The translations under genes and the position numbers were made by a program. The notes under the pieces are model-generated. The model was not told the origin of the DNA. It ran no database searches and saw only the letters and a list, made by a program, of their open reading frames with translations. From positions 5,941,299-6,005,298 of the forward strand of contig NZ_CP051167.1 of the NCBI RefSeq assembly GCF_012295525.1: 64,000 nt of DNA. Direction: 5' to 3'. Of this stretch, positions 5,333 through 61,304 are shown one piece after another. How positions within the stretch are numbered: position 1 is the stretch's first letter; every line of letters starts with the position of its first letter. Source of the stretch: Oxynema aestuarii AP17. Lineage in GTDB: Bacteria > Cyanobacteriota > Cyanobacteriia > Cyanobacteriales > Laspinemataceae.

Positions 5333-6553
5333 CTAAGGCGCTAACGCATTTCCTCGCAGCAAGCTACCGATGGTTTTCGCCGTAATCTTGAGCTGCACCA
5401 AAGGATTGGCGGGAACGACGGTTTTGTAGAGATAGCTATCAAAGGTCAGCTTCTGCACGTCGAGGTCGGCGCACATTTCTACAAACGCTTCCCGGGTAGC
5501 GTCGGAACGGTAGAAGACCCGTTGCAAGATGTCGAGCACCTTGTAGGTCATGCCGTATTTCTTATCCCAACGCTTGATATAAAGCTGCAAGTCCGCTTCC
5601 GTCGGAATGCGCTGTCCGGCGTTGGTGGTTTCGACGATCGTTTCGGCGCACATCCGGGCGGATTTGGCGGCGAAGTAGATCCCTTCTCCCGAGGATTTGG
5701 TCACGGTTCCGGCAGCGTCTCCGACGAGAGCCACGCGACCGCGAACCCGGTGCGGACGGGGATGTTCGGGAATCGGGTGCGCTTCGACTTTGATGATTTC
5801 GCCACCTTCGAGGCGTTTTGCGGCCCGGGCGCGGATTCCAGCTTGAAGCTGTTTGATGCGCGCTTGGTTGACTTTCATCGTACCCGTTCCCACGGCGACG
5901 TGGTCGTATTTGGGGAACACCCAGGCGTAGAAGTCGGGGGAGACGTCGTTACCGACGTACATTTCCGCTAAATCTTGGTAATACGCCATTTTGTCTTCGG
6001 GCAGACGAATGCGCTCTTGGAAGGCGATCGCGTAGTTGTAATCTCCGGCTTCGATCGCCTTGGCTACCCGAGAGTTGGCGCCGTCCGCACCGATGACGAC
6101 ATCGACTTTCAGGGTTTTTTGAGTGCCTTCTAAAGTGCCGTCGGAATGATCGGCGTAGTGAATTGTATAAGGGTCGGTATTATTGGAGGGAATCTCAAGT
6201 TTGTGAACCGTGCCGTTAATCAGGTTAGCCCCTAATTTGGCGGCGCGATCGCGCATGAACCCATCGAGAATTTCCCGACGGCACATGCCAATATATTCGT
6301 CTTGATTGGGTAAATGAATATCGACTTCGATATTAGACGGGGAGATCATTTTCATATTTCTCACCCGCCGATCCACGATTTCGGGAGGTAGATCGAACTC
6401 GCTGACCATGCACAGTGGAATTGCACCGCCACAAGGCTTGGCATTATTGAGCTTGCGCTCGAACAGGAAGGTTTCAATACCCGCTTTTGCAAGTGTCTCG
6501 GCGGCGGAGGAGCCTGCGGGGCCTCCTCCCACGACAGCAACCCTTAGTCCCAA
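5333..6553 (-). CDS. chlP: Geranylgeranyl diphosphate reductase ChlP (chlorophyll/tocopherol phytyl tail).
   Basis: The FAD-binding N-terminus VAVVGGGPAGSSAAETLAKAGIETFLFERK and the CGGAIP motif are present. The 406-aa length matches the ChlP family. Confidence 0.9.
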   Translation of the reverse strand: MGLRVAVVGGGPAGSSAAETLAKAGIETFLFERKLNNAKPCGGAIPLCMVSEFDLPPEIVDRRVRNMKMISPSNIEVDIHLPNQDEYIGMCRREILDGFMRDRAAKLGANLINGTVHKLEIPSNNTDPYTIHYADHSDGTLEGTQKTLKVDVVIGADGANSRVAKAIEAGDYNYAIAFQERIRLPEDKMAYYQDLAEMYVGNDVSPDFYAWVFPKYDHVAVGTGTMKVNQARIKQLQAGIRARAAKRLEGGEIIKVEAHPIPEHPRPHRVRGRVALVGDAAGTVTKSSGEGIYFAAKSARMCAETIVETTNAGQRIPTEADLQLYIKRWDKKYGMTYKVLDILQRVFYRSDATREAFVEMCADLDVQKLTFDSYLYKTVVPANPLVQLKITAKTIGSLLRGNALAP

Positions 6554-6901
6554 AGCTGTTCTCCCTATGTCTGTTTGCGGTTACCGCCAGTCATGGTATC
6601 ACGGACTTCTAAGTCGCGCTTCTCTCCTCTCCCAGATATGACAAAAATGAAACAGACCTTAATATTTCGATACAATTTCTCGAACCCGTCAATCTCGACC
6701 ATCAGCAATTTTGAATGACAGGCGATCGCATTTATGGTATTAGGGCATGAGTCGGGCAGAAAAAAAGGCGACCGGGACGGTCGCACTCGGGAAAATTGGC
6801 AAGCTTGCGATTCTGGAAAAAATGCTAGACTTGCGTCTTTTTAGAAGGGGGGATTTTATGCTCCCTTTCGTTAAGCCAGGGCAAGATTATATAAAACAAG
6901 A

Positions 6902-40369: not shown

Positions 40370-40974
40370 CAGACCTCTCCATCAAACAGACTCGTCCACA
40401 ACCGTTGCATTCCTGCGGTTCCCGTGCATAAGAGCAGTTGACCGAGCAGGGAAATGGCCAGTTCGTCGAGCTTCTCGTTGGAGTTATAAGCCATTACTCC
40501 CGCCCGTCGGGGATTCATCCGACTACGAAAGTGGGCTCGAAATCGTTCTAAATAGTTCGACAGGCGCAGGTGTTGCTCGATCGGAATCTGCTTGACTTGT
40601 AATTGGTGGTAGTCGAGTAAGAGTTGGCGGATCGTTACGGTCAAGCGACGGGCTAGGGAGCAGGCGATCGCCACGAGGGCTTTGGCTTCGAGCAAGCTTA
40701 AGGGACGCCGTTGGCTGTAGCGTCTGAGGGGATTGCTACTGCGAAGTTGCCACAAAAATACCCGGTTTTTAATAATGTGGTCTAGCTGTTGTTCTTTCGC
40801 CACCGCTAAAATTGCCTCGGAACCTCCTAGATATAAGGCTTCAATGGCCAGTAAAATCAGGTCGATTTGCAACCGGGTACTGCGAGGACAGCCGATTTCC
40901 CAGTGTCCTGGCGGATCGGGCAGACTTTGTAGAAGATCTGGGATAGTTTTGTCTGGTGGACTCTTAGATTGCAT
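40369..40974 (-). CDS. DUF3038-like conserved cyanobacterial protein.
   Basis: It is adjacent to and co-directional with the DUF4335-like gene, with start/stop overlap. The assignment relies on recollection of this recurring gene pair. Confidence 0.45.
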   Translation of the reverse strand: MQSKSPPDKTIPDLLQSLPDPPGHWEIGCPRSTRLQIDLILLAIEALYLGGSEAILAVAKEQQLDHIIKNRVFLWQLRSSNPLRRYSQRRPLSLLEAKALVAIACSLARRLTVTIRQLLLDYHQLQVKQIPIEQHLRLSNYLERFRAHFRSRMNPRRAGVMAYNSNEKLDELAISLLGQLLLCTGTAGMQRLWTSLFDGEV

Positions 40975-41023
40975 GAGGGTTACTGGACCATTCATTCCTA
41001 ACGGACTCGGCACGCGATCGGCA

Positions 41024-41258
41024 CTAAGTTGACATCCTCTGCGGCCTCAAGGCGCCCAGATCCCCAGACCTCACGATCTGAGTTTCTGTTTCGTAGCACC
41101 AGCATAAGCGAGATTTACGCTCTTCGGGTCTTACGATCGCGACCCAGATTGACACCGCTTGCCCGGCGGCCAAGACATTGATAGCAGCATTGACATCGCG
41201 ATCGGGGTTGCAACTACATTCAGTTGGATAGAAACGATATCGGAACGCCTTTTTAGTC
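41024..41258 (-). pseudogene. Internally deleted IS200/IS605-family tnpB relic (miniature element).
   Basis: The 78-aa ORF fuses a TnpB N-terminus MTKKAFRYRFYPT directly to a TnpB C-terminal RuvC-III/Zn-finger remnant ECSCNPDRDVNAAINVLAAG. The roughly 350 aa normally between them are missing. Confidence 0.65.
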
Positions 41259-41628
41259 ATGCTCACATTATGGCGCGGACAATGTAAAGCTGCCCTACAA
41301 GGCTTGCCCTGAGCTGAGCCGAAGGGGCGGGGTTTCAGAACCAGGAGTTTTGATGATAACAGAAGCCGTGTAGATTTTAGGTTTCGGGGGATTGAACCGC
41401 TCAATTTACGCGGCCTACACCACCAGCCAAATCAAGGATTATAGCTGGAGTACGGGTCGGTTCTTGACCGTTGATTGTATCAAGATCGCCGCCAACTCCT
41501 ATCGCAACAACCGTTTTCAGCTATAATTTGCACTTTAAAGCTTAGAGCGTCCGGACTTCAAAATCTTCTCCCGATCGCTGCTTAATTCTGTGTTCTGTAG
41601 GGACGGCTGAATCCACACCAGTTTTGAT

Positions 41629-50798: not shown

Positions 50799-51135
50799 TA
50801 GCTATCTTACCGAAAATTTGGGTTTAAAGCCCCGGCCTGCTAGGACGGTTTTTCTTCTTGTAATCTGTCAATCTAATCTTCAATCATCTGAATCATTGTC
50901 TTGCGTTTTTGCTTGGAAATTCTTCTCAGTTTTGTGAGTCTTTCACTGTCAAAATGCTCGATCTTTCCTCGATCGTCCTACCCACTGGCTACCGATCCAC
51001 GTTATCATAAATCCCATGAAGATATTGAAGTTTAAGTTATACAGCCACAAGCACAATAGGCACCTCAAGCGGTCAATTAATGCGGCTGGGGTTTTTTATA
51101 ACCATTGCATTGCTCTCCATAAACCGTACTAGCGT

Positions 51136-51453
51136 ATGGGGGGTAAGCACTTGAACTGTGCAAAACTTCAGTCTCATCTGGTCAAGTTGCGAAAGCGTAA
51201 TCCCTGCTGGAAATGGGTTGGCTCTCAGGCGGTGCAGGAAAGCTGTCAACGTATTGAGAAAGCCGATGGATGGTTCTTCAAGCCTCATAAAAAAGGAGTT
51301 AGATCCCCCGGATTTAAGAAGGTTAAAAAGTACAATTCCTGCACCCTGAAGCAAGCTGGATACAAGTTTCTAGGCGGTAATCGGGTCAAGATTGAGAATC
51401 GAGTCGATCGGTTTTGGAACTCCAGAGAAATAGAAGGGGTGAAACTGTCTTGA
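51136..51453 (+). pseudogene. Internal fragment of an IS200/IS605-family tnpB.
   Basis: The fragment ...SQAVQESCQRIEKADGWFFK...GVRSPGFKKVKKYNSCTLKQAGYKF...NRVKI parallels the SQ-L..AF.NFF...G.P.FK.K....S..Y region of the full TnpB at 60078..61304. It has no N-terminus and no RuvC domains. Confidence 0.5.
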
Positions 51454-60077: not shown

Positions 60078-61304
60078 TCAAAGATTACAATAGCGGCTTC
60101 CCTCTTCACTGGGGACTGCGCTAGATAGAACTGAAGTTCTACCACCTCGTCTTAGATCCCCTCCAAGGGCAGTAGAGCGAGTTCCTAACTCTAATATCCG
60201 TAAGCCTTCATTTTTGAGATTGATGGCCGCATTGATATCCCTGTCATGATGAGTTTGGCAATGTTCGCAAGTCCAGCTTCTCACATCGAGAGGTAAGGTT
60301 TTGACTTGATTGAGGCATACATGGCAGGTTTTAGAAGAAGGAAACAATCGATCGACTTCTAGATCAACTTTTCCTTCTGATTCAGCCTTGTACTTTAACA
60401 TCGTACAAAACATCCCCCAACCGACATCACTAATCGCTTTGGCGAGTTGGTGATGGCGAACCATGCCTATCCCCCCTTTAGTTCCCCCCTTATTAAGGGG
60501 GGTTAGGGGGGATTCGACCACAATCACTTGGTTTTCGTTCACTATCTTACGGGATAGCTTGTGGAGAAAATCTTCACGACAGCGACTTATTTTGGTGTGA
60601 ATCTTAGCAACTTTTACCCGCGATTTATTGCGGTTGTTGCTGCCTTTCCTTTTTCGAGCGTGTTTTTGCTGTTTTCTTTTTAGGTTTCGCGCGTGTTTAT
60701 CAAAATGCTTGGGATTATTATATTTCGACCCCTCACTGGTCATCGCAAAATCGGTCAGCCCTAAATCAATGCCAATTGCTTTTCCTTCAGTTGAGAGGAG
60801 GGGAGGTTCTTTTTTACCCTCTACCAAAACTGAAGCATAATATTTACCATCTGGATTTTTGGAGAGGGTTACAGTTTTGATTTTTCCCTCAAAACTTCGA
60901 TGCTGACGACAACGCACTAACCCAACTTTAGGCAGTTTGATGTAGTTTCCCTCAAACTTAACATTTTGAGGATAACTGATAGATTGCCTTCCCTGCTTGG
61001 ATTTGAATCGGGGTAATTTTGCCCGTTTCTCAAAGAAGTTTCGATACGCGGTCGATAAGTTCAACGCCACGACTTGCAAGCATTGGGAATAGACATCTTC
61101 TTTAAGCCAAGGGTATTCCTTTTTGAGGGCAGGTAATAATCCCTGAAGATAACCCCTCGATAGACCTTTCCCGGTCGATTGATAAGTCTCTTGGCACAAA
61201 TTTAACGCATAGTTCCAATACCAACGACAGCAACCAAAGCTCTTGGCTAAAGTCGCTTGTTGCTTGTGGGTTGGATAGATGCGGTATTTGTACGCCTTGA
61301 ACAT
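60078..61304 (-). CDS. tnpB: TnpB (IS605 OrfB, RuvC-like RNA-guided endonuclease family).
   Basis: It has the N-terminus MFKAYKYRIYPT, RuvC-I AIGIDLGLTDF, the zinc finger CHVCLN...CEHCQ and RuvC-III HDRDINAAINL. Confidence 0.85.
   Translation of the reverse strand: MFKAYKYRIYPTHKQQATLAKSFGCCRWYWNYALNLCQETYQSTGKGLSRGYLQGLLPALKKEYPWLKEDVYSQCLQVVALNLSTAYRNFFEKRAKLPRFKSKQGRQSISYPQNVKFEGNYIKLPKVGLVRCRQHRSFEGKIKTVTLSKNPDGKYYASVLVEGKKEPPLLSTEGKAIGIDLGLTDFAMTSEGSKYNNPKHFDKHARNLKRKQQKHARKRKGSNNRNKSRVKVAKIHTKISRCREDFLHKLSRKIVNENQVIVVESPLTPLNKGGTKGGIGMVRHHQLAKAISDVGWGMFCTMLKYKAESEGKVDLEVDRLFPSSKTCHVCLNQVKTLPLDVRSWTCEHCQTHHDRDINAAINLKNEGLRILELGTRSTALGGDLRRGGRTSVLSSAVPSEEGSRYCNL
60468..60513. repeat. Nested-palindrome C6/G6 repeat inserted in frame within tnpB.
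   Basis: TATCCCCCCTTTAGTTCCCCCCTTATTAAGGGGGGTTAGGGGGGATT encodes ...VVESPLTPLNKGGTKGGIGMV... where TnpB proteins normally have a short ...VED-LNVKGM... segment. It belongs to the same family as the 45270-45313 repeat. Confidence 0.55.

Follow-up and report, generated by a model that had tools for sequence, protein, structure and literature searches.

A very probably immobile, stepwise-deleted remnant of a tnpB-only IS200/IS605-family element in front of the DUF3038 gene of Oxynema aestuarii AP17

Decayed copies of IS200/IS605-family elements are very common in cyanobacteria. Members of the IS1341 group of this family insert 3′ of a short motif without duplicating it, carry subterminal hairpins instead of inverted repeats, have a right end in TCAA, and contain a guide-RNA scaffold that overlaps the 3′ end of tnpB. 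In the TnpB omega-RNA, the scaffold extends from within the 3′ end of tnpB as far as the transposon boundary, and the adjoining flank serves as the guide (PMC8612924). The end hairpins are recognised by IS608-type TnpA (PMC10055086), and they are intact in PATEs, the multi-copy, protein-less IS200/IS605 derivatives (PMC3119063, PMC10055086), for which omega-RNAs acted on in trans have been described (PMC10055086).

Here we analysed a window of 64,000 nucleotides from Oxynema aestuarii AP17, within which the initial annotation had placed an internally deleted IS605-derived element at 41024-41420. The element was borne out as an IS200/IS605-family, tnpB-only, IS1341-type copy, with a corrected extent: the relic runs from 41351 to 41029 on the minus strand (323 bp), and 41357-41420 belongs to the flank. 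Taking the evidence below together, we consider it very probable that the relic derives from a tnpB-only IS200/IS605-family element of the IS1341/IS891 type, is fixed at its site, no longer moves and is in decay. The same window holds 169 copies of the cyanobacterial repeat GCGATCGC, and the DUF3038 protein encoded in it matches that of O. aestuarii AP17 at 100% identity.

The initial annotation had advised defining the ends of the relic from its full-length relatives, and by tblastn and DNA alignment the relic was linked to full-length cyanobacterial TnpB elements. A tblastn search against plasmids led to annotated TnpB genes of Calothrix NIES-22, where the relative is annotated as an ‘IS891/IS1136/IS1341 transposase’, and of Stanieria PCC 7437. 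Alignment with these two plasmid elements revealed a strongly conserved block 3′ of the TnpB C-terminus that finishes in GAGGATGTCAA, and from this block a degenerate 34-nt pattern was made; scanning with it yielded 33 genome and 52 metagenome loci, the named genome loci being cyanobacterial with one exception (‘uncultured bacterium’) and the metagenome contigs being unnamed. None of these 85 loci came from Oxynema, in genome and metagenome collections that do not include the AP17 genome. Full-length family members are tnpB-only elements of ~1.3 kb, exemplified by the Symploca copy L033, whose 1,303 bp comprise a left end of 88 nt, the gene for a 390-aa TnpB and 42 nt between the stop codon and the right end, and no tnpA was identified inside the element or adjoining full-length family copies. 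The homology of every member stops at ...GTCAA, and the invariant family sequence AGGATGTCAA is preceded by a hairpin whose arms covary and whose length varies widely. Many other family loci are internally deleted as well (e.g. L013, L078 and L068).

Closer relatives emerged when proteins were searched with N- and C-terminal parts that had been reconstructed from the orthologous copy in Oxynema sp. CENA135 (assembly GCA_016632315.1), a strain published as O. mangrovii with an average nucleotide identity to AP17 of 95.78% (PMC12895190). This search identified L098, a second same-subfamily relic in CENA135 (2434-2945, 512 bp, DNA 88% identical to the AP17 relic), and L099, the start of a same-subfamily element in Baaleninema. 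In L098 a different deletion joins aa ~71 to VERLPLKIREW, the left-end hairpin is intact, and the protein (P0124, 166 aa) is annotated as a helix-turn-helix domain protein. Oxynema aestuarii proteins were absent from the best 120 relatives of the reconstructed query, and the CENA135 relatives of that query are themselves deleted (248 and 166 aa).

The relic, L098 and L099 represent three independent insertions of one subfamily, and together they set the borders. All three share TCATC followed by AAAACTCCTGG... onward, with unrelated flanks upstream, and the right border after ...GAGGATGTCAA is common to the relic and L098, which alone of the three extend as far as the right end. Among 12 family left ends, the preceding motif was TCATC in 9 (two of them representing one Calothrix element), TTATC in 2 and TTCTC in 1. 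Neither a target-site duplication, according to the motif survey and flank comparison, nor terminal inverted repeats were found at the relic, consistent with IS200/IS605-type insertion 3′ of a short motif. The features of the relic and the other TnpB sequences of the window are as follows.

41352-41356, minus strand: transposon-adjacent motif TCATC, in the flank immediately 5′ of the left end
41261-41351, minus strand: left end, AAAACTCCTGGTTCTGAAACCCCG..., placed by alignments to L098, L099, L033 and L043; its left-end motif sequence is AAAACTCCTGGKTCTGAAACCCCGCCC
~41330-41325 (5′ arm CCGCCC) and ~41295-41290 (3′ arm GGGCAG), minus strand: left-end hairpin remnant
41300-41324, minus strand: 25-nt insertion (CTTCGGCTCAGCTCAGGGCAAGCCT) in the left-end hairpin loop
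41024-41260, minus strand: 78-aa pseudo-ORF, MTKKAFRYRFYPTECSCNPDRDVNAAINVLAAG..., with its ATG at 41260; full translation MTKKAFRYRFYPTECSCNPDRDVNAAINVLAAGQAVSIWVAIVRPEERKSRLCWCYETETQIVRSGDLGALRPQRMST
41222-41260, minus strand: TnpB codons 1-13 (MTKKAFRYRFYPT), matching aa 1-13 of family TnpBs
41221-41223, minus strand: junction of the AP17-specific 289-nt deletion, with CTG microhomology; junction sequence CCAACTGAATGTAGTTGC
41172-41220, minus strand: TnpB C-terminal codons, comprising the last Cys of the second CxxC and then DRDVNAAINVLAAG with the RuvC-III Asp
41029-41171, minus strand: omega-RNA-type scaffold and right end (covariance model R1, 85.3 bits), made up of stem 1 (41171-41153), the CUCAGAUC/GGUCUGGG stem, a terminal hairpin and the terminal GAGGATGTCAA (41039-41029)
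41059-41065, minus strand: GGGGATC in place of the family GGGAATC, just 5′ of the right-end hairpin
41009-41028, minus strand: would-be guide flank (CTTAGTGCCGATCGCGTGCC), placed by the known TnpB omega-RNA architecture
51016-51453, plus strand: TnpB N-terminal fragment, with a short ORF at 51016-51132 that begins MKILKFKLY
60078-61304, minus strand: intact 408-aa TnpB with all three Pfam domains

The 78-aa ORF that had been described as joining a TnpB start to a TnpB end is real, and reads from 41260 to 41024 with TnpB codons 1-13 fused in frame to the TnpB C-terminus. The C-terminal codons correspond to ~aa 342 onward of the 390-aa L033 TnpB; from ~residue 53 on, the last ~25 residues translate scaffold and right-end DNA, and the frame of this tail differs from that of the stop codon of the wider family. 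When set against Pfam profiles, the two motifs of the AP17 ORF scored below threshold and yet fell in the right places, with HTH_OrfB_IS605 matched at profile positions 1-14 (E 0.008) and Cas12f1-like_TNB at positions 44-60 of 60 (E 0.011), both at the expected profile ends, and the longer, 99%-identical CENA135 copy exceeded both cut-offs (56.6 bits against 21 for HTH_OrfB_IS605 and 30.3 against 26.3 for Cas12f1-like_TNB). The proposed check of both motifs against TnpB profiles thus came out negative for AP17 in score, and positive in placement and in the ortholog. The same two pieces also aligned by BLASTP to the intact TnpB of the window, and a word-indexed protein search with the 78-aa ORF returned the ORF itself only. 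Profile placement, the CENA135 copy and tblastn all identify the coding sequence as tnpB-derived. A TldR-type protein has a near-full-length TnpB fold with an inactivated RuvC; here 13 N-terminal and ~40 C-terminal residues are left.

Comparison with CENA135 revealed how this fusion arose. The syntenic locus L094, ordered apt, element, DUF3038, DUF4335, carries the same element at the same site, with a length of 612 bp versus 323 bp in AP17. In the CENA135 copy, TnpB aa 1-95 are retained and are followed by ...QVVERLPLNIREWECSECSCNPDRD..., read in a different frame, and the DNA matching the 78-aa ORF is covered there by two ORFs of 157 and 149 aa in different frames. Window positions 41699-41221 match L094 2009-2486, and 41223-40900 match L094 2773-3096; CTG stands at both 2484-2486 and 2773-2775 of L094, and AP17 is without L094 2487-2775 (289 nt). 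As the orthologous copy is 289 nt longer and keeps aa 1-95, at least two successive deletions occurred, and the single clean deletion of about 1 kb put forward initially gives way to a stepwise loss of ~0.97 kb, with ~0.69 kb removed first and 289 nt later. Given that 289 equals 3n+1, the second deletion brought codons 1-13 into the frame of the C-terminal remnant, and the neat in-frame fusion is thus a chance outcome of two or more deletions. A separate 15-nt zinc-finger deletion, which the alignment to L033 had suggested, was rejected as an artefact of the 289-nt deletion endpoint on the basis of the CENA135 ortholog. No scaffold match was found in the syntenic intergenic regions (421-459 nt) of Microcoleus FACHB-672 and another relative (a Logan contig), indicating that the insertion is specific to the Oxynema lineage.

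The left end has fared worse than the borders. It retains a CTTTACA box and a −10-like CATAAT at 41272-41267, and the 25-nt loop insertion occurs in the AP17 and CENA135 orthologous copies and is found neither in L098 and L099 nor in any family left end. The intact hairpins of relatives read CCGCCC-TTTGA-GGGCGG or CCGTCC-TAAA-GGACGG, and AP17 alone has a G→A change at 41291 within the 3′ arm. In single-stranded DNA folds, z was −2.3 and −2.6 for the relatives, which formed a hairpin of 6-7 bp, and −1.6 for the CENA135 copy, whereas the AP17 left end formed a 4-bp stem around a 28-nt loop that was no better than shuffled sequence (z 0.07). The subterminal hairpin typical of an IS200/IS605 left end was therefore present ancestrally and is lacking in AP17. 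Of the claim that both transposon ends are preserved, the left boundary, TCATC and the right end stood, and the left-end hairpin and the invariant A 5′ of the right-end hairpin, now G, did not. Given that the left-end hairpin, the structure which TnpA recognises, is damaged, excision by a Y1 transposase is unlikely, and by analogy with IS608-type elements it would no longer be possible.

Family left ends (L023, L033, L043, L099 and others) carry an extended −10 (TGnTAAAAT or TATAAT) 7-9 nt before the tnpB ATG, and the conservation of this motif so near the start codon implies a nearly leaderless tnpB mRNA in the relic’s family.

The other end of the relic is preserved far better. To search for the scaffold, we built a covariance model, R1, from alignment A4, which covers the terminal 140-176 nt of 26 diverse members of the family and excludes the relic. 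The minus-strand omega-RNA search called for in the initial annotation gave one match in the window, from 41171 to 41029, with 85.3 bits, an E value of 1.5e-22 and model positions 1-162 covered, the next-best match having 9.8 bits; the claim that the omega-RNA-encoding region had been kept was thus upheld. The family consensus folds into seven helices, with 98.4% of cells paired versus 30-46% when the partners were slid, and a covariation score of 0.244 versus 0.03-0.05 for slid partners. The helices of the relic are mostly intact, with compensatory changes, which counts against plain decay; as in an omega-RNA, the structured scaffold spans the DNA between the 3′ end of tnpB and the boundary of the right end. 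Its right end, complete to the last base, consists of an imperfect 8-bp subterminal hairpin, also with compensatory changes, followed by the invariant GAGGATGTCAA as cleavage motif. Searches with Rfam gave no window matches at gathering thresholds, and none at E<=10 in 40900-41500.

With the same model, complete uncut family copies at loci still encoding TnpB sequence scored 104-178 bits, the closest subfamily (L033 type) 127-137 bits, the CENA135 ortholog 89.1 bits and L098 83.2 bits. Because the independent copy L098 scores alike, the lower score is mostly a trait of the Oxynema subfamily; the reading of a low R1 score and a frameshifted tail as decay after insertion was rejected, as L098 has both. 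The GGGGATC change is common to the AP17 and CENA135 orthologous copies, and GGGAATC was found in 86 of 86 pattern hits and in L098, although the pattern allowed R at the changed position.

Protein-less elements of the same family, ~370-400 nt in length, were observed in Oscillatoriales, Microcoleus and Limnoraphis (L009 at ~6245-6612, L025, L038, L011 and L058). They share the same left end after TCATC, a conserved ~210-nt non-coding insert (GGTATAATTAAAGTGGTTACGACCCAC...) without meaningful Rfam match, and the scaffold and right end, and they score 118-129 bits with R1.

In Logan unitigs from two independent runs on AP17-like samples, assembly stops at 41234 on the apt side and starts again at 41179 on the DUF3038 side (loci L006, L007, L101 and L102). 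These breaks hint that stretches of at least 31 nt inside the relic may recur elsewhere in the genome as paralogous copies, which would count against the reading as a non-mobile remnant.

These comparisons show that a full element inserted 3′ of TCATC between apt and the DUF3038 gene, in the same orientation as DUF3038, before O. aestuarii AP17 and Oxynema sp. CENA135 split. A first deletion, of ~0.69 kb, cost it TnpB aa ~96-325 and with them the catalytic residues of RuvC-I and RuvC-II; before or after this loss, the left-end hairpin loop received the 25-nt insertion common to both species. The AP17 lineage later lost a further 289 nt between the CTG repeats, comprising aa 14-95 and the beginning of the C-terminal remnant, which by chance restored the reading frame and yielded the 78-aa ORF. 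The left end is now damaged and no more than a few dozen TnpB codons are left, while the omega-RNA-type scaffold is complete and retains the right end.

The DUF3038 gene starts 33 nt downstream of the relic and is encoded on the same strand (ATG at 40995); homology to the outgroups restarts just 14 nt before this ATG. Transcription of DUF3038-DUF4335 would thus start in or pass through the relic, making it probable that the relic’s minus strand is still transcribed, with the scaffold in the leader RNA of the DUF3038 gene, and we infer that the relic is now at most leader or promoter DNA for this operon. A dead transposon is compatible with a further role, in which the relic has been exapted as a promoter and/or structured 5′ leader of DUF3038-DUF4335 and is under selection. 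We regard this as possible though doubtful. Along with its position, the relic retains CATAAT where the family has its extended −10 (TGnTAnAAT) just before the tnpB ATG, and the fold of scaffold and flank beats shuffled sequence (z −2.56). The relic is also less diverged between AP17 and CENA135 than its surroundings, at 4/323 (1.2%) versus 18/394 in the non-coding flanks (Fisher p 0.015) and 46/1448 in the ±1 kb flanks (p 0.06), with 3.5% for apt, 2.9% for DUF3038, 6.7% for DUF4335 and 3.3-9% for the intergenic flanks, which gives a weak hint that constraint, rather than neutral decay, may account for the difference; these counts are small, and local rates range from 1.2% to 9%. Against such a role, a scan for a consensus sigma-70 promoter found nothing, the TG of the extended −10 is gone from the relic, and 289 interior nt have proved dispensable in AP17.

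The complete scaffold, recognised by the family model and probably transcribed as part of the leader, could alternatively act as an orphan guide-RNA locus, in which case a TnpB encoded elsewhere, or a nuclease-dead TnpB derivative, would be loaded in trans with its processed RNA, the DUF3038 leader serving as guide. The precedent of protein-less IS605-type elements served in trans, and the protein-less elements of the relic’s own family in Microcoleus and Limnoraphis, lend this reading some plausibility, but we judge it improbable. An invariant scaffold position is mutated, and the would-be guide, which ends within 14 nt of the DUF3038 ATG, is unique in the window, matching its own flank only. 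Nor is there an intact close TnpB for O. aestuarii among the best 120 protein relatives. The only intact TnpB of the window, at 60 kb, is 40% identical to L033, a full-length member of the relic’s family, in agreement with its initial assignment to a different TnpB subfamily; with this low identity and no similar scaffold near it, we consider it an unlikely partner of the relic. No tnpA was noticed beside it among ORFs of at least 90 aa in 58.8-62.5 kb. A second TnpB fragment, reported initially at 51136-51453, was confirmed by the 76.5% identity of its 105-aa ORF to a Nostoc PCC 7120 plasmid TnpB (E 1e-42), with no Pfam match. It is very unlikely that the scaffold and its DUF3038-leader “guide” are under selection and used, either in trans by a TnpB-family protein or as a structured leader controlling DUF3038-DUF4335; if true, a transposon guide RNA would here be at an early step of domestication as a regulator of host genes.

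Equally hard to sustain is the initial suggestion that the relic can still be mobilised in trans, as a PATE- or MITE-like non-autonomous miniature. TCATC, the first left-end bases and the terminal TCAA are in place, and the right-end hairpin has been kept through compensatory changes. Set against these are the disrupted left-end hairpin and the occupation of one and the same site, in different deletion states, in two species that are 3-7% diverged in the flanks. In the 90% protein cluster to which the 78-aa ORF belongs, all three members come from the orthologous site, and L098 has a different deletion; with the AP17 whole genome outside the scan, neither a further copy with the relic’s junction nor the several same-structure copies at different sites expected of a PATE or MITE were found. 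With no tnpA identified in the element or beside full-length family copies, mobility is in our view highly improbable. That the 78-aa ORF encodes a functional small protein is scarcely credible and was rejected, although the frame is open from an ATG and the JGI pipeline calls a gene, because the frame is confined to the AP17 lineage, where a chance 289-nt deletion created it, all TnpB catalytic residues but the RuvC-III Asp are absent, the tail is translated scaffold DNA and no Pfam domain exceeds its cut-off; presumably no functional protein is made from the relic.

The preferred reading, a decaying TnpB relic, places the locus among an already known and routine kind. Its modest worth is that of a worked example, in which cross-species dating, stepwise deletion at microhomology and a chance in-frame mini-ORF can be followed at one site, and the relic stands out for its place within the leader of a conserved operon, combined with a divergence below that of its surroundings. 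Like the IS1341 group of the IS200/IS605 family, it has TnpB N- and C-terminal remnants, an insertion 3′ of a short motif without duplication, subterminal hairpins rather than inverted repeats, a right end in TCAA and a guide-RNA scaffold overlapping the tnpB 3′ end; unlike that group, it is ~75% deleted, disrupted in its left-end hairpin and fixed at one site. It resembles PATEs in being short and non-coding and in keeping its ends and an omega-RNA-like region, but PATEs are multi-copy with intact end hairpins, whereas the relic is a single-site copy with a damaged left-end hairpin that arose by local stepwise deletion, not by spreading as a miniature. With the TnpB omega-RNA it shares a scaffold that begins within the tnpB 3′ end, stops at the transposon boundary and adjoins a guide-like flank, the scaffold here being predicted from sequence and standing without a cognate nuclease in cis or an Rfam family match. 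Similar in construction are the truncated ‘HTH + TNB’ pseudo-proteins, widespread TnpB mini-proteins of 166-226 aa that carry the annotation of helix-turn-helix domain proteins (P0123-P0135), in which an internal deletion likewise joins the TnpB N-terminus to the zinc-finger/RuvC-III part, and of which the AP17 version, with 13 + ~40 residues, is the most reduced.
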